Assembly: GCA_029261065.1 (NCBI GenBank)
Contig: JAJDCB010000030.1
Span: forward strand, 196,876 to 260,875
DNA length: 64,000 nt
Origin: Candidatus Omnitrophota bacterium
GTDB lineage: Bacteria; Omnitrophota; Gorgyraeia; Zapsychrales; Zapsychraceae
Direction of reading: 5' to 3'
How positions within the stretch are numbered: position 1 is the first letter of the stretch; each line of letters begins with the position of its first letter. The notes beneath the pieces are model-generated. The model did not search any database and was not told where the DNA came from. It saw only the letters and a program-made list of their open reading frames with translations. Positions 4,476 to 49,270 of this stretch are shown here, piece by piece. The position numbers and the translations under genes are program-made.

Positions 4476-6185
4476 ATGAATAAATTTAAAGTATGCGCAA
4501 TTGGCGTCTTGCTCGTAATATTTTCTCTATCTTGTGTTTTTTTCCTTGATCGGATGTTCGCCGCCTCCCAAAGCCCTCTCTGGCTTGATGAACATTATGG
4601 GTTAAAACGTTCGACCCGTTATCCTAGTTATGGAGAACTCATTGTTCGTGGTGCCCAGTCCCAAGGAAGTGCCGCCCCGCTAGATTTTCTTATTATTAAA
4701 AGTATTGATAAGATGAAAACATCTCTTAATTGGTTGGGATTAAGACCGCATGTTTATTATCGTTTATTCGCTAACCTTGTAACCGTTTTTAGTGGGCTGC
4801 TTATTTTTATTTTGTTTCTAAAAGAGGTTTATCGGGAAAAAGAACACCTCTGGCTAAGGTATGTTCAGCTGCTCCTACTGATACTTGGCATCATGTCTTA
4901 TTATTATGCCCCCGTTATTCATCATTATGCGGCTGAGATGCGACCATATGCTTTGTGGAGTTCTCTTTGGTTTATTGTTCTTGGTTTAACATTATTGAGA
5001 GTGGCATGGATGCCGTATATCTTCGTTACTCTCATTTTATTATCCTTTAGCGCCACAGCTTCTATTTTTCAGATGGGGGCCTTGGGTATTTGTTATTTTT
5101 TTCTTAGCGCATCTTCAAATCGAAAACAAAGTCTTGTTGAGATAGTCAAAGTTTTTGGTTTACCAATTTTCATTGCACTGTATTACTGCTTACAAGTTCA
5201 ACAGTTTGATCACCCAGCTGAAAGCAATACCTGGAATAATTTTTTCACCTTTTGGAGTCATAAAGCTTATTTGCTTCCTTTATTGATTATGGTTACAGGG
5301 TTTTGTTTATTTCAGAAAAAGAGTAAGTCGTTGGCGATTGCACCTGCAAGTGTTGTATTGTTAACTCTTATGGGCCCCTTAATTTTCTTCATTACAAGAT
5401 TAAAGGGCGTCTTTTTAGCGGAAAGGCATTACATTTATTATGATCATATTCTGCCAATAACGATATTGACACTTGTTGTTGTATTTCCAATAATTATTGA
5501 GCGTATTAATAGTAAAGTTTGGCAAAAGGGAGTCGTTATTGGGTTAGTTCTTATTGCAATAATAGTCACTTTTCGTCCTGCGGTGAATAAGCGCTTTAAG
5601 GCTAGTGTTATTAATGGTTTGTATTTGTTGAAAGATGCTTCTTTGATTAAACAGACATCTCTTGATAAAAAGTTTACGGTTCCTTATTGGGATTCCGATA
5701 AACTAATTTGGGAGGCGAAAGATTTTTCAAGGGCGTCTCAGCATATAATAGGTCAGGCCGTTTGGTTTTTTGATGAGAAGAATCCAAGAATTGCATTGGT
5801 TCATGAAGTGGGTGATGATAAGATAAATCAACAGTCTTTAATTGAGATCGTTAAGCAGCACTATTCTACGGGAGAATTAAAGGTAACTGTTCCCTATCTG
5901 GATGGCGAAATCCATGGGGATCTAGAAATGTTTTATAAAGATGGTTCGTATAAAGCTTTGGCTCAGTATGTTAAAGGCCAACAGCATGGTTTGACGCGTA
6001 AATATTATAAAAATGGTAAGCTTCAAGCTGAAGGGGCGTTTGTTGCAGGTAAAACACAAGGAAAGTCTCTTTTTTATTATGAAAATGGGAGTGTCCAACG
6101 TGAAGATCATTTTGAAAAAGGGCAGTTGCTACAACGAAAACAATTTAATCAAGATGGTCAATTAATCTCAGAAAAAAAGTTCTAA
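4476..6185 (+). CDS. polytopic membrane protein with C-terminal MORN/YwqK-type repeats
   Basis: ~10 predicted TM segments, then YxxGxxxxxxxYxxGxxxG repeats in the last ~90 aa. Confidence 0.6.
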   Translation: MNKFKVCAIGVLLVIFSLSCVFFLDRMFAASQSPLWLDEHYGLKRSTRYPSYGELIVRGAQSQGSAAPLDFLIIKSIDKMKTSLNWLGLRPHVYYRLFANLVTVFSGLLIFILFLKEVYREKEHLWLRYVQLLLLILGIMSYYYAPVIHHYAAEMRPYALWSSLWFIVLGLTLLRVAWMPYIFVTLILLSFSATASIFQMGALGICYFFLSASSNRKQSLVEIVKVFGLPIFIALYYCLQVQQFDHPAESNTWNNFFTFWSHKAYLLPLLIMVTGFCLFQKKSKSLAIAPASVVLLTLMGPLIFFITRLKGVFLAERHYIYYDHILPITILTLVVVFPIIIERINSKVWQKGVVIGLVLIAIIVTFRPAVNKRFKASVINGLYLLKDASLIKQTSLDKKFTVPYWDSDKLIWEAKDFSRASQHIIGQAVWFFDEKNPRIALVHEVGDDKINQQSLIEIVKQHYSTGELKVTVPYLDGEIHGDLEMFYKDGSYKALAQYVKGQQHGLTRKYYKNGKLQAEGAFVAGKTQGKSLFYYENGSVQREDHFEKGQLLQRKQFNQDGQLISEKKF

Positions 6186-8303: not shown

Positions 8304-10070
8304 TTATTTTCTTTTCGGTCGATATATATGCGTACTCTGACCATAGAAGCTTTCCGCTGCTTCCATAATCGTTTCGCTAAGAGTGGGATGAGGATGTATG
8401 GTGAGTTTCAGATCAGAGGCAAGTGCGCCCATTTCTAAAGCGAGGACACCTTCGGCGATCATCTCACCGGCACCAGCTCCAACAATGGAGACACCTAAAA
8501 TACGTTCGGTATCAGGATCAATAAGAAGTTTTGTAAGGCCATCGGTACGATCCAATGTGATAGCACGACCGGATGCGGCCCAAGGAAACTTTTGTACAAC
8601 GTAATTTCGATTCTGGGCTTTAGCTTCTGTTTCGGTTAACCCGCACCAAGCAATCTCAGGATCTGTAAAGACAACGCATGGAATGGCATTGGGTTCAAAG
8701 GCAACTTTGTGACCGGCGATGGTTTCAGCCGCGACAATACCTTCATGAGATGCTTTGTGGGCTAACATGGGTTGTCCTACAATATCACCAATAGCAAAAA
8801 TGGATGGATCTGCCGTTTGCATCTGTGCGTTAACGTCAATAAATTTTTGTTCATTAAGAGTGATTTTTGTCTTTTCTAATCCGATGTTTTCCGTGTTTGG
8901 ACGACGACCGATGGCCATTAATACTTTTTCATATTCTTTATCAAATGTCTTTCCATCTTTATCTTCAAATGTAACTTTAAGACCCTTTTCAACTTCTTCA
9001 ATTTTAGCCACTTTTGTTTCAACCATAATATCGCGTAGGATTGTTTTTAATCTCTTCTCTAAAATGTTAGCCACATCTCGATCGGCGCCAGCCATAAGGG
9101 TAGGAAGCATTTCAACGACGTCAAGCTCGCTTCCTAATTCAGCATAGACCGTACCTAATTCAAGTCCGATGTATCCACCGCCCACAAGCAACATGGTCTC
9201 TGGAACGCTTTCGATATCAAGGGCTGTTGTTGAATCGAGTATGCGTGGGGAATCTGGTAAGTTAGGAATCATGATAGGTCGTGATCCTGTTGCCAGAATG
9301 GCTTTTTCAAATTTTAACTCTTCATTAGATCCATCGGCTTTGGCAATGTTCAGTGTGTTAGAGTCAACAAAGGTGCAGCGGCCTTGAATGAATTTAACTT
9401 TACGTTGTTTGGCTAGTTGTCCTAAACCACTTGTCAGTCGATCAACCACACTATTTTTCCACGCTCGTAATTTATCTAAGTAGATCTTAGGACGACCAAA
9501 TTCAATACCAAAATTCGCAGCTTCTTTGGCTTCTGATAAAACTTTAGCAGCATGAAGAAGAGCTTTAGAAGGAATACATCCGCGGTACAAACAGACGCCT
9601 CCGGGATTAACATCCAAATCAATTAAGGTCACATCTAATCCAAGATCAGCGGCCATGAAGGCGGCCGTGTAACCACCAGGTCCACCACCGATGACAACAA
9701 CACTTTTGTTTTCTGTTGGAACTGTTTCTTCAACGGCGGCAGGTTTCGGTTGCGATTCTGTTTTGGGAGCTTCGGGTGTTGATTTTTGTTCGGTCACAGG
9801 TTTGCTTTCAGGCGCGGATGATTTTTCAGCTGCAGCGGATTCTTCGATTGTTAAGACAACAGAGCCAACTTTAATTTCATCACCTTCTTTAACTAAGATT
9901 TCTTTAACGACACCTCCTACAGGCGAGGGGACAGGAAGGGATGCTTTATCTGTCTCTAATTCAATAAGGTCTTGATCTTTGGTAATGGTGTCACCGACAG
10001 CGACAAAGATTTTAACAATTGTACCTGATTCTATATTTTCACCGACTTCGGGGAGTTTGAATTCGAACAT
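8304..10070 (-). CDS. lpdA: dihydrolipoyl dehydrogenase E3 with N-terminal lipoyl domain
   Basis: lipoyl motif LELETDKASLPVPSP; FAD-binding GGGPGGYTAAF; redox-active CLYRGCIPSK; Ala/Pro/Glu linker. Confidence 0.9.
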   Translation of the reverse strand: MFEFKLPEVGENIESGTIVKIFVAVGDTITKDQDLIELETDKASLPVPSPVGGVVKEILVKEGDEIKVGSVVLTIEESAAAEKSSAPESKPVTEQKSTPEAPKTESQPKPAAVEETVPTENKSVVVIGGGPGGYTAAFMAADLGLDVTLIDLDVNPGGVCLYRGCIPSKALLHAAKVLSEAKEAANFGIEFGRPKIYLDKLRAWKNSVVDRLTSGLGQLAKQRKVKFIQGRCTFVDSNTLNIAKADGSNEELKFEKAILATGSRPIMIPNLPDSPRILDSTTALDIESVPETMLLVGGGYIGLELGTVYAELGSELDVVEMLPTLMAGADRDVANILEKRLKTILRDIMVETKVAKIEEVEKGLKVTFEDKDGKTFDKEYEKVLMAIGRRPNTENIGLEKTKITLNEQKFIDVNAQMQTADPSIFAIGDIVGQPMLAHKASHEGIVAAETIAGHKVAFEPNAIPCVVFTDPEIAWCGLTETEAKAQNRNYVVQKFPWAASGRAITLDRTDGLTKLLIDPDTERILGVSIVGAGAGEMIAEGVLALEMGALASDLKLTIHPHPTLSETIMEAAESFYGQSTHIYRPKRK

Positions 10071-10099
10071 GATTGCCTTGTTTGTATTGTTGATTATGG

Positions 10100-10195
10100 A
10101 AGCGAGTGATAGAGTGCTAGAGTGATAAAGTGGTAGGTTGAGTTTTTATTAACAATTTTTATTATCACTTTATCACTCTAGCACTTTACCACTAA
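10100..10195. repeat. inverted array of 8-mer units (GAGTGATA/CACTCTAC family B) forming a long hairpin
   Basis: left arm GAGTGATAGAGTGCTAGAGTGATAAAGTGGTAG, right arm ATCACTTTATCACTCTAGCACTTTACCACT; located between aceF stop and lpdA start. Confidence 0.8.
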
Positions 10196-10217
10196 ATAAA
10201 TTTAATCTTAATCCAAT

Positions 10218-11498
10218 CTATCCCTCAAGTTCCATCATAAACGGTTGCTCAATCGCCTCACACACCCATTTTAAAAACCGAGCGCCATCAGCGCCATCGA
10301 TGATGCGATGGTCGTAGGACAAGGAAAGGGGGAGCTTAAAGCGTGGGATGAATTGTTTATTTTCATAAACAGGTTCCCATCCCCCTCGAGAAACGCCAAG
10401 AATAGAAACTTCAGGCCAATTGACAATTGGTGTAAAACTTGTGCCATAAATGCCACCCAAATTTGTTAAGGTGATACATCCGCCTCGCAAATCATCAATC
10501 ACAGTCTTTTTTGTGCGTGCTTTCTCAGCCATATCGTTTAATTCTTCATGAATTTCAAAAATACTCTTTTTCTCAACATCTCGAATAACAGGAACGAGTA
10601 AGCCTCGATCTGTGTCAACGGCAACGCCAATACTAAAGTATTTTTTATATATAATTTCGTACGTATTCATATCAATGCTGCAATTAAATTGAGGAAATGT
10701 TTTAAGGGCAGCTGCCATGACTTTTAATAGAAACGGCGTGATTGTTAACTTTCGTTCGGGTGTTGAATATTTTTTGCGTAGCTTTTCTAGGTCTGTAATA
10801 TCCGCCTTGCCAAATTGAGTCACATGAGGGATGTTTTGCCAGCAATAGCTTAAATGATCAGCGGTGACTTTTCTAATTTTAGGCATGGGTTCACGATTAA
10901 TCTCACCCCATTTTGAAAAATCTGGTAAAGCTTTCTGTGCCATGCTAGCACCAGACGCGGCTCCACCACCGGATGTGTTTAATTGTTTGGCAAAGGCCTT
11001 AACATCATCTTTTGAAACGCGACCTGAAGGTCCTGTTCCAGGGACTTGGGAGACATCGATGCCAATCTCACGTGCAAATCGTCGAATGGAAGGGGCGGCG
11101 GCGACATCTTTTTGAGCTGGAATAGCTTTTGCTGGTGCTGCTTGTGCCTTAGGAGCAGGCTTTGATTCCGCTTTTGGTGCTTCAGCTTTAGGCTTCTCTG
11201 CTGGAGTTTCTTTTTTTGTAGTTGGAGTTTCCGGTTTGCTTGTCGTCGCTTGTTCTGCAACTTCACCAGCTTCAATGGTCATGGCCAACTGACCAATCTT
11301 CACCTCATCGCCAGCTTTAATATGGATCTCTTTAATGACACCATCTGCTGGAGAGGGAATAGGAAGAGATGCTTTATCTGTCTCAAGCTCCAATAAATCT
11401 TGATCTTTCTTAACGGAATCACCGACAGCGACAGCTAAGCTGACAACTGTTCCTGATTCAATATTTTCACCAACTTCAGGGATTTTAAATTCAAGCAT
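10218..11498 (-). CDS. aceF: dihydrolipoamide acetyltransferase E2 (pyruvate dehydrogenase complex)
   Basis: lipoyl domain LELETDKASLPIPSP; Ala/Pro-rich linkers; E3-binding region; catalytic DHRIIDGADGARF. Confidence 0.9.
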   Translation of the reverse strand: MLEFKIPEVGENIESGTVVSLAVAVGDSVKKDQDLLELETDKASLPIPSPADGVIKEIHIKAGDEVKIGQLAMTIEAGEVAEQATTSKPETPTTKKETPAEKPKAEAPKAESKPAPKAQAAPAKAIPAQKDVAAAPSIRRFAREIGIDVSQVPGTGPSGRVSKDDVKAFAKQLNTSGGGAASGASMAQKALPDFSKWGEINREPMPKIRKVTADHLSYCWQNIPHVTQFGKADITDLEKLRKKYSTPERKLTITPFLLKVMAAALKTFPQFNCSIDMNTYEIIYKKYFSIGVAVDTDRGLLVPVIRDVEKKSIFEIHEELNDMAEKARTKKTVIDDLRGGCITLTNLGGIYGTSFTPIVNWPEVSILGVSRGGWEPVYENKQFIPRFKLPLSLSYDHRIIDGADGARFLKWVCEAIEQPFMMELEG

Positions 11499-11539
11499 GA
11501 TAGTTTCCTTCTTGCAAAGCGGGATTTAAAAAGCACTAA

Positions 11540-11675
11540 TGTCATCTCAAGACAGCAATGTCATCCTCGCGAAAGCGGGGATCCATTAGTAGTTATAAAG
11601 ATTACGAAGTTCCCGCTGGGGCTTACCCAATAGGATTCCCGCTTTCGCGGGAATGACAGATGGAGCGGGGATTAC
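11540..11675. repeat. REP-like element family A (inverted pair)
   Basis: GTCATCCTCGCGAAAGCGGGGATC ... GGATTCCCGCTTTCGCGGGAATGAC. Confidence 0.85.
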
Positions 11676-11677
11676 TT

Positions 11678-14359
11678 TTACGAAATCATCGGATTCAATT
11701 TATCCGGATTAATATTCAAATCTTTCGCCGCCTGCTCAACAATACTAGCCTCAATTTTCTTTTCCTTGCATAACTGTCCTAACGCGGTAAAAGCAATGTG
11801 ACGGGCGTCGACTTCAAAGAAATCGCGAAGGGCTTGGCGTGATTCGCTGCGGCCAAAACCGTCTGTTCCAAGAGTGGCATGAGGGTTTAAGATCCATTTG
11901 GAAAGTCCATCAGGCATAATCTTCATGTTATCTGAGGCAAAGACACAAACATCATCGTTTCCTTTAAGGATATCTTGAATGTAAGGCGTCTTTTGTTCTT
12001 TTGTCGGGTTAAGCATGTTGTAACGCTCAACATCCAGACAATCGCGACGGAGTTGATTGTAGCTTGTAATGCTCCAGACATCGGAGGCGACGTCATATTT
12101 TTCTTCTAATATTTTTTGGGCTTCTAACACTTGATTAAGAATCGCCCCACTCCCAAAGAGTTGAACATGCGCTTTGTCGGTCGTTTTTTCTTCACTCTTA
12201 AATTTATACATCCCCTTTATAATGCCTTCTTTAGATCCTTCAGGCATATCTGGCATCGGATAATTTTCGTTACCCACACTAATGTAATAAAAAACATTTT
12301 CTTGTTTTTCATACATGCGATAAATACCTTCTCGGATAATCACGGCAATTTCAAAAGCGTAAGTTGGATGATAAGTAATAATGTTTGGAACGGTGGAAAG
12401 AAGGACATGGCTGTGTCCATCTTGATGTTGTAAACCTTCACCGTTAAGTGTTGTTCGACCAGCTGTACCACCGATAAGAAATCCTCGGCATCGAGAGTCA
12501 GCTGCCAACCAAATCAAATCACCCACGCGTTGAGGGCCAAACATGGAATAATAAATATAGAAGGGAATTGTGTTAATCCCGTGAGTTGAGTACGCTGTTC
12601 CAGCGGCAATAAAAGAGGAGATGGCGCCAGCTTCATTGATGCCTTCTTCTAAAATTTGACCATCGATCGCTTCTTTATAATAGAGAAGACTCTTAGCATC
12701 GACCGGTTCATAAAGTTGTCCAACATGAGAATAGATGCCGAATTGTCTAAATAATCCTTCCATCCCAAATGTTCTCGCTTCATCAGGAATGATAGGAACA
12801 ATGAGTTTTCCGATTTCTGGATCTTTGAGCAATTCTGTGAGGATACCAACATAGGCCATGGTTGTTGAGATGTCACGACCAACCATTTTACTTGTCGCCT
12901 TTTTGAAAAATTCCTCAGAAGGTGTTTTAAGCGGTTCGCTTGTTTCTTGACGAGCTGGCATGTATCCGCCAAGCGCTGTCCGACGTTCTTGAAGATATTT
13001 CATTTCTTCTGAGTCTTCGGCTGGTTTGTAGAAGGGGGCATCAGCGACTTCGTCATCAGAGATAGGAATGCTAAAACGTGTGCGAAATTCGCGCAATTCA
13101 TCTTCGTTTAACTTCTTTTGCTGATGAGTAATGTTTTTCCCTTCACCACTTTCACCAAGCCCGTATCCTTTAATTGTTTTAGCAAGAATAACAGTTGGCG
13201 CGCCCTTAAAATCAGAAGCGGCTTTATAAGCGGTATAAACTTTTTCAGGGTCATGACCACCACGTTTTAAGGTGCGTAATTGTTCGTCGGATAAATTTTT
13301 AACCAAGTCTAGCAATTCAGGATCTTTGCCAAAGAAATCATTACGAATGTATTCGCCGGATTCTACCGAATATTTTTGATATTGTCCGTCAACAACCTCG
13401 CCCATACGTTTAACGAGTAACCCTTGCTCATCATTTTCTAATAGCGGATCCCAGTCTCCTCCCCAAACAACTTTTATGACATTCCATTGGGCCCCACGAA
13501 ATAGCGCTTCAAGCTCTTGAATAATCTTTCCATTACCGCGAACAGGTCCGTCTAAACGTTGAAGGTTACAATTGATGACAAAAACCAAATTATCTAATTT
13601 CTCACGCGAAGCCATCGTTAGCGCCCCTAAAGATTCAGGTTCATCAGATTCCCCATCACCCATGTAGACCCAAATTTTGGCATCGTCTTTTTGTTTTAAT
13701 CCACGATCTTCTAAATAACGCATAAAGCGTGCTTGATAAATACTGCAAATAGGACCTAATCCCATTGATACGGTTGGAAATTGCCAGAAGTTTGGCATCA
13801 ACCAAGGGTGAGGATAAGAGGAGAGACCTTTTTCCTCTTGAAGCTCTCGTCGGAAATTTTTTAGATTTTCTTCGCTTAAACGCCCTTCAACAAAGGCGCG
13901 TGAATACATTCCAGGAGAGGCATGACCTTGAAAATAAACAAAGTCGCCACAAAAGTCTTTAGTGCGCGCGCGAAAGAAATGGTTGTATCCGACTTCATAA
14001 AGAGTCGCTGATGATGCGTACGTTGAAATATGTCCACCAATCCCCGCTTCAGCCCGATTTCCACGCACAACCATAGCCATTGCATTCCAACGAATAATAC
14101 TTTTAATGCGTCGTTCAATTTCTCGATTACCAGGGTAAGTTGGTTGTTTATCTGGGTGAATAGTGTTGACGTAAGGGGTGTTGACGGTAAAGGGAAGGGT
14201 AACGCCGGCTTCTTGAGCACGAATTTGAAGGCGGGCTAATATTTGTTGAGCTTGATCTTTCGATCCATTCTTTAAAACATATTCAAGAGAACTTAACCAC
14301 TCTTGAACTTCTATTTCATCGACCTCAGTGGATCGGTTGTTGACGCCATCTGGACTCAT
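11678..14359 (-). CDS. aceE: pyruvate dehydrogenase E1 component, homodimeric type
   Basis: 893 aa; ThDP-dependent E1 layout upstream of aceF-lpdA on the same strand. Confidence 0.9.
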   Translation of the reverse strand: MSPDGVNNRSTEVDEIEVQEWLSSLEYVLKNGSKDQAQQILARLQIRAQEAGVTLPFTVNTPYVNTIHPDKQPTYPGNREIERRIKSIIRWNAMAMVVRGNRAEAGIGGHISTYASSATLYEVGYNHFFRARTKDFCGDFVYFQGHASPGMYSRAFVEGRLSEENLKNFRRELQEEKGLSSYPHPWLMPNFWQFPTVSMGLGPICSIYQARFMRYLEDRGLKQKDDAKIWVYMGDGESDEPESLGALTMASREKLDNLVFVINCNLQRLDGPVRGNGKIIQELEALFRGAQWNVIKVVWGGDWDPLLENDEQGLLVKRMGEVVDGQYQKYSVESGEYIRNDFFGKDPELLDLVKNLSDEQLRTLKRGGHDPEKVYTAYKAASDFKGAPTVILAKTIKGYGLGESGEGKNITHQQKKLNEDELREFRTRFSIPISDDEVADAPFYKPAEDSEEMKYLQERRTALGGYMPARQETSEPLKTPSEEFFKKATSKMVGRDISTTMAYVGILTELLKDPEIGKLIVPIIPDEARTFGMEGLFRQFGIYSHVGQLYEPVDAKSLLYYKEAIDGQILEEGINEAGAISSFIAAGTAYSTHGINTIPFYIYYSMFGPQRVGDLIWLAADSRCRGFLIGGTAGRTTLNGEGLQHQDGHSHVLLSTVPNIITYHPTYAFEIAVIIREGIYRMYEKQENVFYYISVGNENYPMPDMPEGSKEGIIKGMYKFKSEEKTTDKAHVQLFGSGAILNQVLEAQKILEEKYDVASDVWSITSYNQLRRDCLDVERYNMLNPTKEQKTPYIQDILKGNDDVCVFASDNMKIMPDGLSKWILNPHATLGTDGFGRSESRQALRDFFEVDARHIAFTALGQLCKEKKIEASIVEQAAKDLNINPDKLNPMIS

Positions 14360-14389
14360 AGGAATTCCTTATGATTGGTTATAATGATT

Positions 14390-14484
14390 AGAGTGATAGA
14401 GTGGTAAAGTGATAGAGTGGTAAGAATTGCGGAATTAACTCCATACTATCACTTTATCACTCTACCACTTTATCACTTTTTTTG
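14390..14484. repeat. family B 8-mer inverted array followed by T7 run
   Basis: AGAGTGATAGAGTGGTAAAGTGATAGAGTGGTAAG ... TATCACTTTATCACTCTACCACTTTATCACT TTTTTTT; sits in the aceE 5' region. Confidence 0.8.
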
Positions 14485-14599
14485 TCTCAAGTTCACAGCA
14501 TTGTATTATGGTTTGGGGCAATGTGCAAGAATTAAATGAGGGGATGTTGATGGGGAGAAGCAAATAAGTGTCCTTCGTCCTTGTCTTGTATTTTATTTT

Positions 14600-14735
14600 T
14601 GCCTTGCATGTTATTCGTGCCCTGTATGTCATTTCCGCCCCATATGTCATTCCCGCGAAAGCGGGAATCTCCTGGAGCCAAGTTTGTTATAAAACCCTAT
14701 TTCAGATCTCGGATTAAGTCTGGTACGACAAGCTC
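14600..14735. repeat. REP-like element family A with TGTCATT tandem units
   Basis: TGTCATTTCCGCCCCATATGTCATTCCCGCGAAAGCGGGAATC + AGATCTCGGATTAAGTCTGGTACGACAAG. Confidence 0.85.
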
Positions 14736-14747
14736 AACATAATTTCT

Positions 14748-15767
14748 CTACACCACATGAGCCAACCCCGCATTAAGAAGCTCTTGATTAAGATACTTCC
14801 CTTTTTGTGCCACAATTTTGGCATCAGTTTCGTTCTTTAAATAAAAAACATCCACCAGGTAACGATCGTATTTATCGGTGGTGTAGGTTTTGTGGGTTTT
14901 GATGATGAGGGGAGAGGCGTTTTTAAGCTGTGCCTCTACAAAATTTTTGGCTTTGGCGCCTTTGGCAGATGACATCTCTGGGGTGTTGATGTGACGCAGG
15001 CGTAATCGTTGGCTGATGAAGGTGTTAAATCCGCAATCAATGATCGCGATTAAGGTATCGCCATCCACGACTCTTTGAAGATGGGCTTTGTAACAAAAAC
15101 GTTGATCGTCATCGCTGGTCACGCGATTTATTTTGGTTCCATTAACGTGAAGATAATCTTGATCCTTTAGGCGGATGCCTTTAAGGGGAGGCAGAGGTTT
15201 TAAAATTTTAAAACCGCAATCCACAAAGAGGGGCGCGTTCTTTGAAGGGATTTCAGGGACGCTTATCACTTGATAAGTGTTTAATTGGCCTCGGGTAAAA
15301 GCTAACGTTGGAGGATTTTGTGATATTTGATGAATGCGTTCACGTGTTTTGAGTGTTGTAATCTGCTGAGCTAATTCGTTAGAATTCCAATTGTTTTTTA
15401 GGGCGCGATTTTCTATCTGTAGTCTTTGTTGATCATCTTTGACGGTGAGTAAAAGCTTGTACTTGGTCCATTCCAATTCTGGCCGCGCGGCCAGTTTTGG
15501 GTAGGTTTGATAAAATTTAACCACCCGCCACAAGAGGCTCCCGCTACAATTTAAATCTTCCGCCAATCGTTCAATCACCGTCTTCCCGTATTCGGGCTTT
15601 GCCGCATTCTCCAAAATATGCTCTGAAATATATTGTCCGACACTCCAATAAGTCCCCACCGTTTCTTGTTTGATTAACCTCTCTAACCCCATCAACCGAT
15701 CCTTCACCCGCACCAACAATGTTGAATATTTAGAACCAAGTGCAATGACATTCTTTTTTTTAGGCAT
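14748..15767 (-). CDS. DUF1016 (YhcG N-terminal domain) fused to SNase-like (thermonuclease) domain
   Basis: N-terminus YWSVGQYI...YGKTVIERLAEDL...LWRVVKFYQTYP (DUF1016_N pattern); C-terminus VVDGDTLIAII...RLRLRHINTPE...YDRYLVDVF (SNase pattern). Confidence 0.6.
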   Translation of the reverse strand: MPKKKNVIALGSKYSTLLVRVKDRLMGLERLIKQETVGTYWSVGQYISEHILENAAKPEYGKTVIERLAEDLNCSGSLLWRVVKFYQTYPKLAARPELEWTKYKLLLTVKDDQQRLQIENRALKNNWNSNELAQQITTLKTRERIHQISQNPPTLAFTRGQLNTYQVISVPEIPSKNAPLFVDCGFKILKPLPPLKGIRLKDQDYLHVNGTKINRVTSDDDQRFCYKAHLQRVVDGDTLIAIIDCGFNTFISQRLRLRHINTPEMSSAKGAKAKNFVEAQLKNASPLIIKTHKTYTTDKYDRYLVDVFYLKNETDAKIVAQKGKYLNQELLNAGLAHVV

Positions 15768-15769
15768 CT

Positions 15770-16012
15770 TTAATTTCCTTTCCAGTCTAATGGTTTGCTA
15801 CCACCGACACTCATGCAGAGGTCTTTGACTTCTTTGAGCCCGTAAATAATAAGATATTCATCTTCAGTGGGTTTAAATTCTTCACTTAGCATGTCTACAG
15901 GGCGGCCGGCAATTCTCGCTTTGAGATATTGTTTGCAGTCATTGATGTACATGCAGACTTCCTTTTTAAAACTTCCTGTCCAAAATTCTGTTGGGATCTC
16001 ATCTTTATTCAT
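15770..16012 (-). CDS. small hypothetical protein, 2-nt gap to the nuclease gene
   Basis: 80-aa ORF directly upstream on same strand as 14748..15767. Confidence 0.4.
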   Translation of the reverse strand: MNKDEIPTEFWTGSFKKEVCMYINDCKQYLKARIAGRPVDMLSEEFKPTEDEYLIIYGLKEVKDLCMSVGGSKPLDWKGN

Positions 16013-16297
16013 GCGATGTTTCCTTTTCTTGTGTGTTGGTTAATTTTTATAAGTATACGTATCATTTAAAAACCTGTCAACGTTGCGTTGATGGAGGGGG
16101 TGTTTGATGTTAAACTGGAGCATAATCTGTGACACCTGTCATTATTCATACAAAAGAAATAAACTCTTTCCATTTTGGAAACAGTTTAAAATGAGGGGAT
16201 GAAGGGATCTGGTACTAAAATACTGATTTAGCTAAAGAAAGTAGAATGCTGAGTAAGTTGGATGAAATTTAAGCTAATAAACAAAGGATAAATAATT

Positions 16298-17551
16298 ATG
16301 AAACGGATAGTTCTTATGGCAGTATTCTTATGCATAATACAAATTGCATTTGCTCAGGAAAAGCTAAAAGATGGAGTTTTTAATGATTATTACGACAGCG
16401 TTAGTTTGAAGGAGGAAGTCATATATAACAATGCTGAAAAGCATGGTCCTTTTAAAAAGTATTATGAAAATGGGAGTCTTTATAGTGAAGGTGTATATGT
16501 TAATGGAAAGTTATATGGAATAGTAAAATATTATTACGACAATGGGCAGTTACATAAAGAAGTAGAATATCTGGATGGAAAGAGGAACGGTGTTGAAAAG
16601 ACCTATACAAATCCGAATCAAGGAATTGGAACAGAATCTTATTTGTATAGTGAGATTGGATATAAGGATAACAAATATCATGGTGTCTATAAAACATACT
16701 ATCCTAACGGGCAAATAATAGTTGAAAAGCAGATTGTTAATCAAAAAGAAGAGGGTGAATTAAAAGAATATTATCAAGATGGTTCATTGAAACAAAAAAG
16801 CATTGTCAAGAATGGTCGTCCTGTTGAAGAAAAGAACTTTGATGAAAGTGGTAATCTCCTTCCCAGTGGTTTTAGAGATGGAATGTATTGGCAGTATGAT
16901 GTAAGTGGAAAATTAAAATTAACTCATGAACCTGTTTATAATAGTAAAGATGGAATTATGGGAATATATCGTTATTATTATCCAAATGAAAAAATTAAAT
17001 TAGAGATACCAATTACTAAAGGTGGAAGTGAGTTAGGCTTTTGTGTTCATGGCCTTATGAAAATCTATTTTGAAGATGGTCAGTTAAAAGATGAGGTTAG
17101 GTTTAGAGATTGCAAAGAAGATGGTGGCGTTCAGCGATTTTATAATAATGGGCAGTTAAGAGAAAAAGGTGTTTACAAAGAGGGTGAATGGCTTAAAGTA
17201 AAAAGATTTAACAGAAAAGGCGAAGAACTTGCTAAAGGCCCCACAATACATATTGAGTTTGATAAAGGAAAGTATATTTCAGGGGATATAGTTACAATTT
17301 ATATTGATAATAATTTAAATAGCCATGTAAGATTAGCGTGGCTTTTTATTTGTGCAGAAGGCGATAGTGATTGGGATTGCAAATCTAAGAACTCTGATAT
17401 TAGCGGTAGTACTATTGATAAGGGTGAAACGATGATTGTAGAATTAAAAGCTGATGAACTAACCCCTGGTAAAGGTAAATTTAGAGTTTCATATGCAACG
17501 GATGGTGAATATCCCTTTTTCGAATCCCAAGAGTTTATTTTCACTAAATAA
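16298..17551 (+). CDS. secreted MORN/YwqK-repeat protein
   Basis: signal peptide; >8 repeats of YYxNGQLxxEgxYxxGKxxG. Confidence 0.7.
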   Translation: MKRIVLMAVFLCIIQIAFAQEKLKDGVFNDYYDSVSLKEEVIYNNAEKHGPFKKYYENGSLYSEGVYVNGKLYGIVKYYYDNGQLHKEVEYLDGKRNGVEKTYTNPNQGIGTESYLYSEIGYKDNKYHGVYKTYYPNGQIIVEKQIVNQKEEGELKEYYQDGSLKQKSIVKNGRPVEEKNFDESGNLLPSGFRDGMYWQYDVSGKLKLTHEPVYNSKDGIMGIYRYYYPNEKIKLEIPITKGGSELGFCVHGLMKIYFEDGQLKDEVRFRDCKEDGGVQRFYNNGQLREKGVYKEGEWLKVKRFNRKGEELAKGPTIHIEFDKGKYISGDIVTIYIDNNLNSHVRLAWLFICAEGDSDWDCKSKNSDISGSTIDKGETMIVELKADELTPGKGKFRVSYATDGEYPFFESQEFIFTK

Positions 17552-17606
17552 GGTTGTCTTAAGAAAAGAATAGAATAGGTGACAGCTTAGATTCAAAAGA
17601 GTGCAA

Positions 17607-17660
17607 AAATAATCCGTGACAGGCACTCATTATTGAAATAGCGTGCCTGTCACTATTAAT
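17607..17660. repeat. 52-bp hairpin element family C (AATCCGTGACAGGCACTCATTATT-N-GCGTGCCTGTCACTATTAAT)
   Basis: GTGACAGGCAC / GTGCCTGTCAC 11-bp inverted stem; 3 copies in window. Confidence 0.85.
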
Positions 17661-17699
17661 ATGTTACTTTACTCGTCCCAAAGTCAAAGAGCAGTTTAA

Positions 17700-18413
17700 A
17701 TGAAAAAAGTAATGCTAATTTTAATAATTATGTTTTGTTCAGTGAGCTCTTGGGCGGGGCCTATTTGTGATGGCGCAAAAGAATGTGCTAAATTACAGAT
17801 AAAGGTTGTTGAGCAAGTCGTTAATCCTGTTAATTATGTTATTGCGGCTAAAGGTGATCTTAATGCTACGAAAAGATTGATTGCTGATGTTCAGAAGTTA
17901 TCTTTTGACGTTTACAAGGTTAATTATGTTCCCGAAAAGGTCAAAGTAAAAAAGACGCATATTGCTGGGTATTACAGGGAGTTAGATGACATTCAAATAG
18001 AAACTGTTCTTAAACGGAGAAGTCGCAAACGATGGCTAGAGGATGACTATACGCCAGATGCTTGGAAGAAACGGTGGGCCGTTATAAATCAGTTTAAAGT
18101 TAAAGGCGAATTCGGATATCCAGAACGGTGTCCCTCATCGTACACACCTAAGAAGAATAAAAAGTTTTCAGACAAGTGTGAATTCTTAATAGAAACAAAA
18201 AGTGGGCTACGACTGTACAAGAACTCTCGTCATAGTAGTTACGGAGATATTGTTTATACCAGAATAAATAATACTTATATTGTTTTTTCATATTTTAGAA
18301 AATTAAGAAAAGAGGATGCTTCAGAAATAGCAAAGGTGTTTGATGCGTTAACCGTGTTTAATAAAAAAGAATTAAAAAAACAGCAAGTGAGTCATTTAAG
18401 CATACTAAGATAA
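17700..18413 (+). CDS. hypothetical secreted protein, bracketed by family C hairpins
   Basis: signal peptide MKKVMLILIIMFCSVSSWA; Cys-containing; no known motif. Confidence 0.5.
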   Translation: MKKVMLILIIMFCSVSSWAGPICDGAKECAKLQIKVVEQVVNPVNYVIAAKGDLNATKRLIADVQKLSFDVYKVNYVPEKVKVKKTHIAGYYRELDDIQIETVLKRRSRKRWLEDDYTPDAWKKRWAVINQFKVKGEFGYPERCPSSYTPKKNKKFSDKCEFLIETKSGLRLYKNSRHSSYGDIVYTRINNTYIVFSYFRKLRKEDASEIAKVFDALTVFNKKELKKQQVSHLSILR

Positions 18414-18420
18414 AGATAGA

Positions 18421-18473
18421 GATAATCCGTGACAGGCACTCATTATTTAAAAAGCGTGCCTGTCACTATTAAT
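18421..18473. repeat. family C hairpin element
   Basis: GATAATCCGTGACAGGCACTCATTATTTAAAAAGCGTGCCTGTCACTATTAAT. Confidence 0.85.
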
Positions 18474-18490
18474 TTTTCTGGAGAACGGAA

Positions 18491-19072
18491 ATGACTAAAT
18501 CAAAACAAAAAAAAGTGCGGTGCGCGTGGGTTGGGGCAAGTAAACCCCTTTACGAGGAGTATCATGATGCCGAGTGGGGTGTGCCGGTGCATGATGATCG
18601 GGTGCATTTTGAGTTTTTGATTTTGGAAGGGGCGCAGGCGGGGTTAAGTTGGTATACGATTTTGCAGAGAAGAGAGGGGTATCGTAAAGCGTTTAAGGGG
18701 TTTGATGCGCAAAAAGTTGCTAAGATGACAGATGCGCAATTGGAAAAGCAGTTGTTGAATCCTGGAATTATTCGTAATCGTCTTAAAGTTTTTTCCGCTC
18801 GTAAAAATGCACAAGTGTTTCTCAAAATTCAAAAAGAATTTGGTAGTTTTGATAAGTATGTTTGGTCTTTTGTTGGGGGTAAGCCCATCATCAATAAACG
18901 GAAGACCTTAAAAAATTTACCTGCTACAACTCCTGAAAGCGACGCCCTCTCCAAAGACCTCAAAAAACGAGGCATGTCCTTTGTTGGATCAACCATCATC
19001 TACGCGCACATGCAAGCCACGGGGTTGGTTAATGATCATACGGTGGATTGTTGGCGGCACCATAATCCGTGA
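18491..19072 (+). CDS. tag: DNA-3-methyladenine glycosylase I
   Basis: YHDAEWGVPVHDDRVHFEFLILEGAQAGLSWYTIL is the Tag family signature; Cys/His Zn site near C-terminus. Confidence 0.85.
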   Translation: MTKSKQKKVRCAWVGASKPLYEEYHDAEWGVPVHDDRVHFEFLILEGAQAGLSWYTILQRREGYRKAFKGFDAQKVAKMTDAQLEKQLLNPGIIRNRLKVFSARKNAQVFLKIQKEFGSFDKYVWSFVGGKPIINKRKTLKNLPATTPESDALSKDLKKRGMSFVGSTIIYAHMQATGLVNDHTVDCWRHHNP

Positions 19073-19114
19073 CAGGCACTCATTATTGGAAAAAGCGTGC
19101 CTGTCACTATTAAT
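19062..19114. repeat. family C hairpin element overlapping the tag stop codon
   Basis: CATAATCCGTGACAGG... ; the TGA stop of tag is the TGA inside CCGTGACAGG. Confidence 0.85.
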
Positions 19115-19158
19115 CCGATCCCTACCAATTTTATTATTTCCTGTTATAATATCTGACT

Positions 19159-19614
19159 ATGTCAAGCGCTATTGCCACCAACAAAAAAGCTTTTCGCGAT
19201 TTTTTCCTCTCTGATAAATGGGAATGCGGGATTGCCCTTTTAGGTGGTGAGGTTAAATCCATTCGAGCCGGGCATGTCAATTTTAAAGATACCTTTGCTC
19301 GCATCGATAAAGGCGAGATCTTTCTTTATAACCTTCATATTGAGCAATATAACGCTGCCAGCCACATGAATAAAGAGCCGGATCGCGTGCGTAAACTTTT
19401 GATGCATAAGAAAGAAATTAAGCGTCTTGAAGGTAAACTAAATCAGCAGGTGGGAACGCTCATTCCAACGAAGATTTATTTTAATAAGCGAGGCTTAATT
19501 AAGGTTGAGATTGCCTTGGGACGAGGAAAGAAGCTTTATGATAAGCGTGAAGCGATTAAGAAGCGGGATGTGGATCGCCAGATTGGGCGGGAGATGCGTA
19601 ATCGGCGGGGGTGA
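19159..19614 (+). CDS. smpB: SsrA-binding protein
   Basis: GIALLGGEVKSIR...YNLHIEQY...KIYFNKRG pattern typical of SmpB; 151 aa. Confidence 0.9.
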   Translation: MSSAIATNKKAFRDFFLSDKWECGIALLGGEVKSIRAGHVNFKDTFARIDKGEIFLYNLHIEQYNAASHMNKEPDRVRKLLMHKKEIKRLEGKLNQQVGTLIPTKIYFNKRGLIKVEIALGRGKKLYDKREAIKKRDVDRQIGREMRNRRG

Positions 19615-19616
19615 TT

Positions 19617-19812
19617 GAGTGATAGAGCTAATTAGTGATAGAGTGGTAGAGTGGTAAGAGGGTATTGAAAAGGAAGTTAGTGATAGGTTCTTATCTATTT
19701 GTAAATATTTAATTTAACACCAATAAGCATTCAATCAACTCTATCACGTTACCACTCTACCACTCTACCACTCTACCACTTTACCACTTTATCACTCTAT
19801 CACTTAATCACT
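19617..19812. repeat. family B 8-mer arrays in inverted orientation (7 tandem CACTCTAC-like units on right arm)
   Basis: GAGTGATAGAG...GTGGTAGAGTGGTAAG / CCACTCTACCACTCTACCACTCTACCACTTTACCACTTTATCACTCTATCAC. Confidence 0.85.
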
Positions 19813-19846
19813 AACTCCCCTTATCAAAACAACCAACAACATACTC

Positions 19847-22039
19847 ATGTCAAATCCTAAACTAACCCTTATTAAATCGATTACCTTCTTATCGGCCTTT
19901 TTGATGTTTCAAATTGAGCTTATTATAGGAAAGATTTTTTTGCCAAATTTTGGCGGAAGTTTTGTCGTTTGGGGAGCCTGTGTCGTTTTTTTTCAAGCGG
20001 CATTGTTGTTAGGGTATATGTATTCCCATTGTGTCGTTCAAAAAATAGGTATATATAAATATCGTTATATTCATCTCATTTTATTAGGGCTGCCATTTTT
20101 GTTCTTTCCAGGAAAGCCGTTGGCGATGCGTTATGAGATTAGTACGCTTCCTATGGTTCTTGAAATATTTTTAAAGCTTATTTTTACCATTGGTCCAGCT
20201 TTTTTTGTGCTCTCAACGATGAGCATTATTTGGCAGGCATGGTTGTCACAATCCACTATTGAAGAGCGATCAAATCCGTATACTCTCTTTGCCGTTTCCA
20301 ATTTTGGCTCTTTTGCAGCTCTTCTTACATATCCTTTTTTTATAGAATCTTATTTAGATCTTTTTCAACAGCAACATATCTGGCGGTGGATGTATGTAGG
20401 AATGTTTTTTCTTCAGGCGCTGGCTTTATTTGTAGTGAATGTCGATAAAAAACTGGATAGCAAGCGTGAGAAGGTTAAGAAAGTCTCTCTCTCTAAAGGA
20501 ATGCCAATCTTAATTTATGGAGCTGCGGGTGTCATGATTTTTTTATCTGTCACAAGCATTATCACAGCCGAGATTGTACCCATGCCTTTGTTGTGGGTTC
20601 TACCGTTAACACTCTATTTGTTTTCTTTTGTTTTGATTTTTAAAAAGAAGTCCTGGGCTCCTGCGTGGATGGTTAAGCGTTTTGATGTGTTAGTAGGGTT
20701 TGCTGTTCTTTTTTATTTTTTTACACAGATGAAGGCCTTTCCTATTTTGTTTGAATTAGCTGTGCTTTTGATGATTACATTTTGGACATGTCTTTACTGT
20801 CAGTATCAGGTTTTTCGTCTTCGCCCTAAAGATTTAAGAAATTTAACATCCTTTTATTTGTATTTGGCTTTAGGTGGGTTCTTAGGAGGTGTTCTTGTGA
20901 CGTGGTTTGTTCCTTTGTTTTCGACGACATTTGTTGAATACTTCTTATCATTTTTTGTTATTTATTTGGCGGGTCTTAAGGATAAATCTTTACGATTAAA
21001 TAAATTTTATGTCGCTCGTCTTTGTCTTTATGTTCTTGCTATTCTTTTTGTCTGGCCTTTGGTGTTTAAGCAGTACAATTTTTGGGGAATGATTTTGATT
21101 ATTGCTGTGATGAGTTTTGCCTTTAAGGAATTAGCTCGGCATCGCTTTGGGATACTTAGCGTATTGTTGATTTTATCTTCTTCTTTAAATGTTCTGGAGC
21201 CGATTTGGAACAAGCAAGTCGACATTTATCGTGATCGTAATTACTATGGTATTAGCAAAATTTCAGAAGAAGAGGGGGTAAGGTATTTTCTTCATGGGGC
21301 AACAATTCACGGGGCGCAATTTTTAAACCCAAAAGGCCTCGATATTCCTTTAACTTATTTTTCATCCACGTCTCCGATTGGAGAAGTTATGCAATCCGAT
21401 AATTTTGATTTTAGAAAAATTGGTGTAATCGGTTTAGGTGTTGGGACGTTAGCTACATATTTAAATGATGGGGAACATCTAGATTTTTTTGAGTTGGATC
21501 CTGATGTTGAAAGTTTGGCGAAGAATTATTTTTCATATTTAAAGAACGCCAAAGGAAAGATTCAACATTTTACGGGTGATGCCCGAATTACTTTAGAAAA
21601 GATGCCGTTACAGAACTATCAATTGTTAGTAGCAGATGCCTTTAGCGGTGATGCCGTTCCTGTCCATTTGATAACAGAGGAGGCTATGCATCTTTATCAA
21701 AAACATTTAGCCCCGGAAGGGTTGGTGTTATTTAACATCACGAATCGCTATATTAATAATCAATACCCCATATTAAGCACGGCTCTTAGTACTGATGCTA
21801 AATTGTGTTATAAGGTTGCAAATTTTGATAGTGTTGTGTTTTTTTCATCCACTTGGGTTGCGGTCACATGGAATGATGAGGTTTATAAGACATTAACAGA
21901 AGAGATGGGGTGGTTAACAGTGGATAAAAATTTGGCAAAAAGGGTAAGAAAATGGAATGATCGATATACGAATATTCTACCTTATGTCAAATTTAAAGAA
22001 CTTGGCTATGCCCTTAAAAATTTTGATTTTTTAAGATGA
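19847..22039 (+). CDS. membrane-anchored spermidine synthase-like (PABS) protein
   Basis: ~12 TM segments then IGVIGLGVGTLATYL...FELDP...GDA...LLVADAFSGD (SAM-dependent aminopropyltransferase fold). Confidence 0.7.
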   Translation: MSNPKLTLIKSITFLSAFLMFQIELIIGKIFLPNFGGSFVVWGACVVFFQAALLLGYMYSHCVVQKIGIYKYRYIHLILLGLPFLFFPGKPLAMRYEISTLPMVLEIFLKLIFTIGPAFFVLSTMSIIWQAWLSQSTIEERSNPYTLFAVSNFGSFAALLTYPFFIESYLDLFQQQHIWRWMYVGMFFLQALALFVVNVDKKLDSKREKVKKVSLSKGMPILIYGAAGVMIFLSVTSIITAEIVPMPLLWVLPLTLYLFSFVLIFKKKSWAPAWMVKRFDVLVGFAVLFYFFTQMKAFPILFELAVLLMITFWTCLYCQYQVFRLRPKDLRNLTSFYLYLALGGFLGGVLVTWFVPLFSTTFVEYFLSFFVIYLAGLKDKSLRLNKFYVARLCLYVLAILFVWPLVFKQYNFWGMILIIAVMSFAFKELARHRFGILSVLLILSSSLNVLEPIWNKQVDIYRDRNYYGISKISEEEGVRYFLHGATIHGAQFLNPKGLDIPLTYFSSTSPIGEVMQSDNFDFRKIGVIGLGVGTLATYLNDGEHLDFFELDPDVESLAKNYFSYLKNAKGKIQHFTGDARITLEKMPLQNYQLLVADAFSGDAVPVHLITEEAMHLYQKHLAPEGLVLFNITNRYINNQYPILSTALSTDAKLCYKVANFDSVVFFSSTWVAVTWNDEVYKTLTEEMGWLTVDKNLAKRVRKWNDRYTNILPYVKFKELGYALKNFDFLR

Positions 22040-22061
22040 TCGTTGAGCGCGGCTTTATTTT

Positions 22062-22089
22062 TGCATATATCTTCAGAACCCGTTATAAT
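22062..22089 (+). promoter_or_regulatory. sigma70-like promoter for ssrA (TTGCAT-16 nt-TATAAT)
   Basis: TTGCAT at 22062-22067, TATAAT at 22084-22089, ~37 nt before the tmRNA 5' end. Confidence 0.55.
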
Positions 22090-22126
22090 TAATGACATAG
22101 ATTTGATCATTTAAATTAAAGGCTCC

Positions 22127-22542
22127 GGGGGTGACATGGTTTCGACTTGGGTTATCGGAGTTTGAGTGGCATGCGGAGGACGTCTGGTTGGCCTCCTAAA
22201 AAATCCAGGCACACAATAAACGCTAACGATGAAACGTTGACGTTTGCTAGCTTGACTAATTCAACAATGGACAGCGATGTTCCTGTTGAACCATCACTAG
22301 CAACAGCACCAGCCTTATCGGTCTAATTCACTGGTAAGCCCTCTTGTAGCAGGCCTGTGGGTTACAAGTGGAACAAGCAGGCTGGTCTTATAAATTTGCT
22401 TCATTTATAAGATAAGATTTAGAAGCTAGTTTCATTTACGTTTGTTTATTTAGAGAAGTGAAGCGAAATTAAAAATAAACTAAGCATGTAGAAGCTCTTA
22501 CAAAGGAACCAAAGGACCGGGGTTCGATTCCCCGCACCTCCA
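22127..22542 (+). ncRNA. ssrA: tmRNA (transfer-messenger RNA)
   Basis: 5' GGGGGTGACATGGTTTCGAC and 3' GGACCGGGGTTCGATTCCCCGCACCTCCA (T-arm + acceptor) match tmRNA ends; tag frame starts GCT AAC GAT GAA (ANDE...) at 22222, stop at 22324. Confidence 0.85.
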
Positions 22543-22683
22543 TTTAGTTGTAGTGCATCTCCACCCCATTGAGGTGCATAGGCTTATGATAGTATATTGT
22601 TTTAATTCTCGATTGGTGCCCATTTAGTGCCCAAAGTATCACATTTTTCTTGCATTCATTCTATTGACTATTATAATAAACCC

Positions 22684-34902: not shown

Positions 34903-35022
34903 TGTCATTCCCGCCCCTTATGTCATTCCCGCGAAAGCGGGAATCCTACGGGGTAAACTCCAGCGGGGAACTATTAATAGTTATCATCCTTATGAGGTCC
35001 CCGCTTTCGCGGGGATGACACG
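34903..35022. repeat. REP-like element family A (inverted pair)
   Basis: GTCATTCCCGCGAAAGCGGGAATCC...CCCCGCTTTCGCGGGGATGACA. Confidence 0.85.
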
Positions 35023-49119: not shown

Positions 49120-49270
49120 GGTTCCCGCTGGAGTTTACCCCATAGGATTTCCGTTTTCACGGGAATGACATAAGGGACGGGAATGACACGATTACTTTTA
49201 ATATTTGTAGAAAACAAAAATGTTATCCCCGCCCCATTTGTCATTCCCGCAAAAGCGGGAATCCATTAAT
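49120..49270. repeat. REP-like element family A cluster
   Basis: GGATTTCCGTTTTCACGGGAATGACA...GGGAATGACACG...GTCATTCCCGCAAAAGCGGGAATCC. Confidence 0.85.

Follow-up and report, generated by a model that had tools for sequence, protein, structure and literature searches.

Three inverted octamer arrays beside a PDH operon and smpB

The window is a 64-kb stretch of DNA from a Candidatus Omnitrophota bacterium, in which three inverted arrays of a tandem octamer (loci 1-3) stand beside the genes of a pyruvate dehydrogenase (PDH) operon and beside smpB. Locus 1 is intra-operon, between the aceF stop (10218) and the lpdA start (10070). Locus 2 is 30-120 nt upstream of the aceE ATG and downstream of the promoter. 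Locus 3 occupies the whole spacer between smpB and the open reading frame (ORF) ORF730. We argue below that the three loci are probably not dedicated PDH switches but selfish hairpins inserted into the transcripts of PDH and smpB. The features in question are the following.

8304-14359, minus strand: host operon with aceE (11678-14359), aceF (10218-11498) and lpdA (8304-10070), assigned by NCBIfam
10104-10136, unstranded: locus 1 purine-rich arm, AGTGATAG AGTGCTAG AGTGATAA AGTGGTA
10137-10161, unstranded: locus 1 loop, AT-rich, about 27 nt
10162-10197, unstranded: locus 1 pyrimidine-rich arm, TATCACTT TATCACTC TAGCACTT TACCACT
14389-14423, unstranded: locus 2 purine-rich arm, four units, super-period of 16 nt
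14424-14446, unstranded: locus 2 loop
14447-14481, unstranded: locus 2 pyrimidine-rich arm
14500-14528, minus strand: probable aceE promoter TTGCAC-N17-TACAAT, conserved in four related Omnitrophota loci
19159-22039, plus strand: host genes smpB (19159-19614, NCBIfam) and ORF730 (19847-22039)
19611-19664, unstranded: locus 3 purine-rich arm, interrupted, about 5 units, starting within the smpB stop codon region
19665-19736, unstranded: locus 3 internal spacer, about 72 nt, without ORF
19737-19812, unstranded: locus 3 pyrimidine-rich arm, 8-9 units
22127-22545: transfer-messenger RNA (tmRNA) gene, from Rfam

A sequence-only reading of the window had reported tandem 8-nt units opposite their complements at these three places, forming hairpins in the promoter-proximal and inter-gene regions of the PDH operon, and both the positions and the architecture hold up. 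The octamer CACTYTAY (CACTYTAYCACT) matches the window 18 times where shuffles predict 0.03, and all 18 matches are within 10105-10193, 14392-14477 and 19634-19804, with none elsewhere in the window. A 16-mer with one mismatch allowed also has 18 matches, against 0.02 expected. Tandem Repeats Finder reports period 8 at 10104-10136, 10162-10193, 14389-14423, 14447-14479, 19634-19664 and 19738-19812. At all three loci the left arm is (AGTGRTAR)n and purine-rich, and the right arm is (YTAYCACT)n and pyrimidine-rich. Because the element is palindromic, this arm order is the same on both strands. The arms of locus 1 (10105-10135 and 10163-10193) are 31 nt long and 90% complementary around a loop of 27 nt, those of locus 2 (14392-14422 and 14447-14477) are 31 nt long and 87% complementary around a loop of 24 nt, and those of locus 3 (19611-19656 and 19766-19811) are 46 nt long and 83% complementary. 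The right arm of locus 3 has the 8-9 units listed above, where seven consecutive ones had been counted before. Folded as RNA, each locus gives one long stem of 27-45 bp, with z-scores of -7.4 to -11.0 and 0 shuffles as good. The fold energies are -39.5 kcal/mol (sense) and -47.0 kcal/mol (other strand) for locus 1, -39.7 and -47.7 kcal/mol for locus 2, and -87.0 kcal/mol for locus 3. All three have long (>20 bp) stem-forming terminal inverted repeats, and no ORF is found inside their loops (24-72 nt).

The aceE promoter, CTTGCACA-N13-CATAATACAAT, is common to the window and to the related loci L123, L225 and L227, and is weaker in L122. Since the hairpin of locus 2 starts about 20 nt past the -10 box of this conserved promoter, we place it in the aceE 5' untranslated region (5'UTR). 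The sites of loci 1-3 are therefore one 5'UTR and two intercistronic spacers, all co-directional with the host genes. No ribosome-binding site is covered by the stems of loci 1-3. None of the three is among the terminator-like sites of the window and no sense-strand U-run follows any of them (the sole T-run follows locus 2, on the antisense strand), and we do not class them as intrinsic terminators. An Rfam scan of the window reports only the tmRNA. Loci 1-3 are in spacers of protein-coding genes and are therefore not classical 23S rRNA intervening sequences (IVS), which are insertions in helix 25 or 45. The genes smpB, ORF730 (fused, major facilitator superfamily/spermidine-synthase-like) and the tmRNA gene are grouped on one strand (19159-22545).

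Comparison with related Omnitrophota

The AceE protein is found 100% identical on an NCBI contig, and the next relatives, at 83-72% identity, are metagenome-assembled genomes (MAGs) of Candidatus Omnitrophota/Omnitrophica. The spacer between aceF and lpdA is 147 nt in the window, against 56 nt (L122), 66 nt (L123) and 18 nt (L227) in relatives, all without an array. The spacer between smpB and ORF730 is 233 nt in the window and 13 nt in the relative L225, where the ORF730 ortholog has 43% identity. Because the relatives have short spacers at these positions, loci 1-3 are lineage-specific insertions relative to the related genomes.

The PDH operon of relatives includes other hairpins of the same design. 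The aceE-aceF spacer of L224 has a gene-less inverted heptamer array, GCGGTTA/TAACCGC, with a fold energy of -41.1 kcal/mol, and the same spacer in L225 and L226 has gene-less inverted arrays of GAGATAA/TTACCTC. Since the heptamers differ between these spacers, we conclude that hairpins have been gained repeatedly in the PDH operon, with lineage-specific units.

Two other features of the region are reported here for completeness. A 4.8-kb block (14748-19072) stands between aceE and smpB, two genes that are directly divergent neighbours in related Omnitrophota. It holds a nuclease-like ORF, a small ORF, an adhesin-like ORF, an ORF of no assigned kind and a tag glycosylase, and it is flanked at some distance by loci 2 and 3. 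The window also has a second and more abundant repeat, the REP-like palindrome GGATTCCCGCTTTCGCGGGAATGACA (REP, repetitive extragenic palindrome), with about 20 matches against 0 expected, at 1817, 3871, 3968, 7749, 11559-11658, 14645-14672, 33613, 34921-35020, 36443-36495, 44853, 44947 and 49149-49260. Its copies are often inverted doublets. They fill the aceE-aceF spacer and are also found upstream of the aceE promoter, and a similar sequence is present in the relative L224 (3800-3940).

Octamer arrays in other genomes

We scanned one genome per species with the pattern CACTYTAYCACTYTAYCACT and found at least 119 loci, picked by octamer pattern alone. The pattern fixes six of the eight positions, so a position-frequency table of the unit is no evidence of conservation. 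The listed loci are in Elusimicrobia, Planctomycetota, Phycisphaerae, Omnitrophota, Verrucomicrobia, Bacteroidota, Ignavibacteria and others, some in genomes of more than 60% GC. In other bacteria the element is found in unrelated spacers, tRNA clusters and rRNA. Among the 107 listed loci with an array by the criterion used, 34 are hairpins with the polarity of the window and 2 are reversed, and 19 are in long ORFs. L113 shows CACTYTAY-type arms with complementary inner extensions (4255-4290 and 6068-6100) around a 504-aa aldehyde dehydrogenase gene in an operon, and therefore the loop of such an element can hold an ordinary gene. Three other loci with long unique inverted repeats (L147, L157 and L165) were considered as rRNA IVS and rejected, as Rfam finds no rRNA there. 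The DnaA box, TetR or lambda operator half-sites and the TRAP/HutP triplet sites have only partial letter matches to the unit.

Octamer arrays are also present in five phi29-like podovirus contigs from IMG/VR (L207, L212, L213, L216 and L218), of 12-13 kb, which have a protein-primed DNA polymerase, packaging ATPase, major head protein, upper collar and endolysin. Here 5-7 AAGTGGTA units lie within inverted terminal repeats, 60-110 nt from each end. The ends of L207 are true linear termini, as Illumina adapter sequence is found on both sides of it. The nearest GenBank record of these contigs is MT836125, from human faeces.

The same arms enclose IVP genes

ORF clustering and a profile search find a gene of about 120 aa between or beside the arrays at seven of the 119 listed loci (L002, L015, L016, L024, L044, L088 and L111). 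This gene matches PF05635 (23S_rRNA_IVP) and TIGR02436 (four helix bundle protein) with E-values of 1e-13 to 1e-40, and we refer to it as the IVS protein (IVP) gene. Its product has weak similarity to Avd, a protein of diversity-generating retroelements (DGRs), and the relatives with a solved structure are 2GSC and 2RLD. Arrays of the window's unit family enclose an IVP ORF in L002, L015, L016, L044 and L088, and in L243, a contig of sample SRR15505515. In L016, an Omnitrophota MAG, the arrangement is (AGTGGTAA)6, gene, (TTACCACT)n. In L015, neighbouring spacers of a tRNA cluster are occupied by a cassette and by a copy that lacks the gene, and gene-less hairpins with the cassette's unit near cassettes are present in L126, L111, L169 and L185 as well.

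L243 ties locus 1 to such a cassette. The source organism was found in one sample only, SRR15505515, where the Logan contigs agree with the window. L243, which carries the IVP homolog P0140, comes from the same sample as those contigs, and it has 38.1% GC where the window has 37.5%. The order on L243 is a leuB-like gene, AGTGGTAAAGTGATAAAGTGATAA, IVP, TATCACTTTATCACTCTAGCACTCTACCACT and an asd-like gene. Its right arm and the 6 bases beyond it are identical to the right arm of locus 1 at 36 of 37 positions, including the unusual CTAGCACT unit, and its left arm is one unit shorter than the other arm of locus 1 but otherwise equal to it. The arms of locus 1 are thus homologous to those of a gene-carrying cassette that sample and GC would place in the same genome. 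At the orthologous site in L016, which is upstream of asd, there is a cassette with the unit of L243, although the two IVP proteins are only 62% identical. That the unit is retained while the proteins have diverged to about 60% identity points to some constraint that is sequence-specific.

The association also holds in the reverse direction. We collected 80 metagenome loci picked by IVP protein similarity alone, 70 of them with both flanks. At 52 of these 70 genes the upstream flank is complementary to the downstream flank beyond every shuffle. A flank score threshold is passed by 56% of 71 IVP genes and by 8% of 37 other genes in the same loci. The period of the flanks is 7 or 8 in nearly all, and the units vary by locus (GGATTAA, AAGCTAT, AGTGATTG, AAGTTTCA, GGCACAGA, a 9-mer and an 11-mer). 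Cassettes have period 7 (n=24) or 8 (n=15), the 5' arm is purine-rich in 39 of 42, and the IVP gene and the gene upstream of it are co-oriented in 60 of 64 cases. Similarity of the IVP protein predicts both the period and the sequence of the unit across contexts (Mantel p <= 0.0005). Pairs of IVP proteins at least 50% identical but in different contexts have the same period in 86% of cases and a shared 6-mer in 50%, against 32% and 22% for pairs less than 35% identical.

On finished plasmids, tandem arrays are found on both flanks at 10 of 12 IVP genes, mostly inverted. Examples are the (CAGGAGT)n flanks in Nostoc punctiforme, (GGGTGTA)n in Calothrix and (GGAGATA)n in Picosynechococcus. The IVP gene on an Azospirillum lipoferum plasmid sits in a 23S rRNA gene (an LSU rRNA match of 925 bits), and this 23S rRNA IVS is flanked by (GACAGAG/GACGGAG)n and its complement. 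Because inverted heptamer arrays flank it, we conclude that the classical IVS has the same repeat-built stem. IVP genes with repeat arms are also present inside CRISPR-Cas operons on plasmids of Picosynechococcus PCC 7003 (L230), Pseudanabaena galeata (L236) and Anabaena sp. 90 (L239). The gene pairs that they separate are cmr2/cmr3 and, in two different cyanobacteria, cas6/cas4. As an example of paralogs in one genome, the Omnitrophota genome L241 has two IVP cassettes 3.3 kb apart (9920-10400 and 13260-13735), each with matched arms, in which the proteins are 63% identical and the units are GTGATCA in one and GGGATAA/GTGAGAA in the other. The Logan contig L001 (983 nt, with smpB) ends inside the right arm of locus 3, and most contigs with IVP genes are only 0.5-3 kb long, which suggests that the arrays routinely break short-read assemblies.

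Loci 1-3 as probable gene-less IVS-like inserts

Because loci 1-3 are gene-less copies of a stem that encloses IVP genes in many bacteria, we read them as gene-less, IVS-like members of a dispersed hairpin family, probably cut by RNase III, prone to slippage and carried as selfish passengers. We give this reading a probability of about 65%. In an element of this family, a 7-8 nt unit (here AGTGRTAR and YTAYCACT) would form two arrays in inverted orientation, the purine-rich arm coming first. A full-length element would carry the PF05635/TIGR02436 gene in its loop, and the classical 23S rRNA IVS would be one special case. Gene-less copies would have been gained in the transcribed spacers seen here, that is, the aceE 5'UTR, aceF-lpdA and smpB-ORF730. 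Transcribed with their host genes, loci 1-3 would fold into RNA stems of 27-45 bp, which RNase III may cut by analogy with the IVS and with the 5'UTR hairpin of hmw. Cut in this way, the PDH and smpB transcripts would be divided or shortened but still expressed. The likely outcomes are an aceE leader that is processed or altered in stability, lpdA separated from the aceEF mRNA, and smpB separated from ORF730. Unit number would shift by slippage, and the copies would spread or persist as selfish passengers, with the IVP protein possibly taking part.

Several observations weigh against this reading. Transcription and cleavage of loci 1-3 are steps that we infer. The mismatches between arms show no bias on the sense RNA (87 G.U-compatible against 77 A.C, p = 0.48), and since this test gave no sign of selected pairing in the sense RNA, a role at the DNA level is equally possible. 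(A comparison of duplex energies, in which the sense strand was better in 61 cases against 16, is set aside as probably confounded by base composition.) No IVP gene or remnant was found in the 64-kb window, and what ties L243 to this genome is the sample, the GC content and the identity of the arms. Single arrays without a partner make up 47 of the 107 listed loci, so not every array is a hairpin element. The arrays at the IVP genes of L133, L173 and L236 are direct and not inverted, and the flanks in L229 are non-complementary. In L236, at least 14 AAAGCTA units (290-400) are upstream of the IVP gene and about 10 AAAGCCA units (760-870) are downstream, in direct orientation. Finally, we find neither a target-site duplication nor an empty site at base resolution for loci 1-3. 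Mobility is suggested by presence and absence among relatives, by the multiple copies and by the same-unit gene-less copies near cassettes.

A wider and tentative proposal, which we would sooner doubt than assert, is that PF05635 proteins and inverted 7-8 nt arrays together make up a single self-contained element, widespread and at home within transcripts (rRNA, tRNA clusters, operon spacers and CRISPR-Cas operons). The four-helix-bundle pentamer would recognise the units, and gene-less hairpins would be non-autonomous derivatives, related to the cassettes as REPINs are to RAYTs (REP-associated tyrosine transposases). A large part of the short tandem repeats that lack an explanation in Cyanobacteria, Bacteroidota and bacteria of the Planctomycetes-Verrucomicrobia-Chlamydiae (PVC) group, such as STRR-like heptamers (STRR, short tandemly repeated repetitive), would then belong to the system. 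In the open-access literature we found no description of PF05635 genes generally bracketed by inverted 7-8 nt arrays, nor of gene-less derivatives in mRNA spacers, and the unit sequences matched primers only.

Alternative explanations

The alternative that survives best, a possible but rather doubtful one, is that the arrays are protein-binding sites. The units would be sites for the IVP pentamer or for a repressor of the ribbon-helix-helix type, bound cooperatively as tandem 7-8 bp units of DNA or RNA, and symmetry in their arrangement would give the potential for hairpins as a side effect. This is compatible with gene-less IVS-like inserts. The IVP homolog Avd binds nucleic acids, and ribbon-helix-helix proteins bind such arrays (the 8-bp boxes of MetJ, the WATCACW heptads of omega and the ACTC-N4 sites of ParG). 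The unit is kept across phyla, and across the IVP proteins of L243 and L016 at their orthologous site. The agreement of period and unit between similar IVP proteins in different contexts is what such binding would produce, the absence of G.U bias on the sense strand fits it, and the same octamers are found in the terminal repeats of phi29-like phages. Joint inheritance of gene and arms leads equally to a correlation between protein and unit, however, and binding of the unit by IVP is putative. The paralogs of L241 have different units, and therefore the sequence of the IVP protein does not simply dictate the unit.

It is unlikely that the arrays are a phase-variable contingency switch, in which slippage in unit number tunes or switches the expression of PDH and smpB, and the dedicated regulatory role in PDH expression put forward by the sequence-only reading fares no better. 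The loci do consist of tandem units, and locus 2 is in a 5'UTR, where the hmw 5'UTR offers a precedent that joins heptamer repeats, a hairpin and RNase III (PMC12721329), so that for locus 2 the idea keeps some probability. Indirect support exists for the premise of slippage in unit number, as orthologous elements differ in unit number (L174 and L199, L188 and L193, and an orthologous site in Bacteroides intestinalis and B. oleiciplenus), as do the heptamers of Coxiella strains (PMC4990558). Against the switch, the arrays are neither between the -35 and -10 boxes nor inside ORFs, and the ribosome-binding sites are outside the stems. The host genes are housekeeping genes, and the element is not specific to PDH: it also follows smpB and is present in the unrelated spacers, tRNA clusters and rRNA described above. 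Related Omnitrophota have the same operon without the element. A comparison of unit number, which the sequence-only reading had proposed as a check across strains and reads, has one other assembly of the organism to draw on, and its unit numbers are identical to those of the window.

Ordinary transposase-moved selfish DNA, such as miniature inverted-repeat transposable elements (MITEs) or REPs, with the arrays of IVP genes as a favoured landing site, is improbable. In its favour, palindromic elements occur between genes in multiple dispersed copies, with presence or absence differing among relatives, and the window has a true REP-like family as well. Against it, no target-site duplication or other direct repeat flanks loci 1-3, no transposase lies between the arms in the 119 listed loci, and no transposase or RAYT gene bounded by such ends was found. 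The arms are built of tandem units whose number varies and not of a fixed terminal repeat, the arm of locus 1 matches an IVP cassette even beyond its end, and inverted-array flanks go with IVP genes far more often than with other genes. We therefore classify loci 1-3 neither as MITEs nor as REP/REPIN-RAYT elements, whose associated gene is a Y1 transposase and not PF05635 and whose arms are not tandem octamers.

Under the preferred reading of gene-less IVS-like inserts, the hairpins are to be annotated as inserts and not as gene-specific regulators, and the expected effect on PDH biology here is limited to mRNA processing or stability. They also help explain assembly breaks at such sites. The loci of the window are modest in themselves, and the general link between IVP genes and arrays is the interesting part. 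It ties together three puzzles that have been treated separately, namely the origin and role of the 23S IVS, the function of the Avd-related PF05635 proteins, and the intergenic heptamers and octamers of distant phyla, and it offers a testable model of a repeat-built stem inside transcripts, with or without a gene.

Comparison with known systems

The REP/REPIN-RAYT system is similar in that gene-less hairpin repeats are dispersed in intergenic spacers, the repeat is specific to a genome or lineage, and a single-copy gene is flanked by the same repeats in inverted order. It differs in the repeat, a 20-40 nt palindrome with a GTAG or CGTC head where the window has arms of tandem 7-8 nt units, and in the gene, since IVP is a 120-aa four-helix bundle of no known catalytic activity and RAYT is a Y1 transposase.

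The hmw hairpin of H. influenzae is a repeat-built, phase-variable 5'UTR hairpin cut by RNase III (PMC12721329). It shares with the window a tandem array in a 5'UTR and a long hairpin, and its transcription, cleavage by RNase III and variable repeat number are what we would expect of the window as well. Its right arm, unlike ours, is a G-rich region without repeats, and it belongs to a single adhesin contingency gene and is neither dispersed nor linked to IVP.

The STRR heptamers and the TAACTGA repeats of Beggiatoaceae, Cyanobacteria and Bacteroidetes are also intergenic tandem 7-nt units in distant phyla, variable in copy number and of no known mechanism (PMC4679880). The link of TAACTGA repeats to PF05635 is not made in that work (PMC4679880). 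Descriptions of both kinds speak of direct repeats, with neither a partner arm nor a gene enclosed. STRR are also said, by Vioque in 1997, to extend a helix of RNase P RNA. Heptamers of this sort flank the IVP genes that plasmids of Nostoc, Calothrix and Anabaena carry. The elements of the window are not STRR themselves, which are heptamers of heterocystous cyanobacteria, as their unit is an octamer and their host is an omnitrophote; they are related by architecture only.

The closest system is the 23S rRNA IVS of Leptospira, Coxiella and Azospirillum. The elements of the window differ from it in their sites, which are mRNA spacers and a 5'UTR and not helix 25 or 45, in having no ORF, in their octamer unit, and in that RNase III processing is a prediction for them. 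Short IVS without an ORF are also known. The likeness is in the long stem, which in the IVS surrounds a PF05635 gene within a transcript, from which RNase III excises it (PMC4990558), and which in Azospirillum is made of tandem heptamers. In Coxiella, the IVS has tandem GACAGAT heptamers before the S23p ORF, with the number varying between 2 and 3 among strains, and a 28-bp terminal stem at which RNase III excision takes place (PMC4990558).

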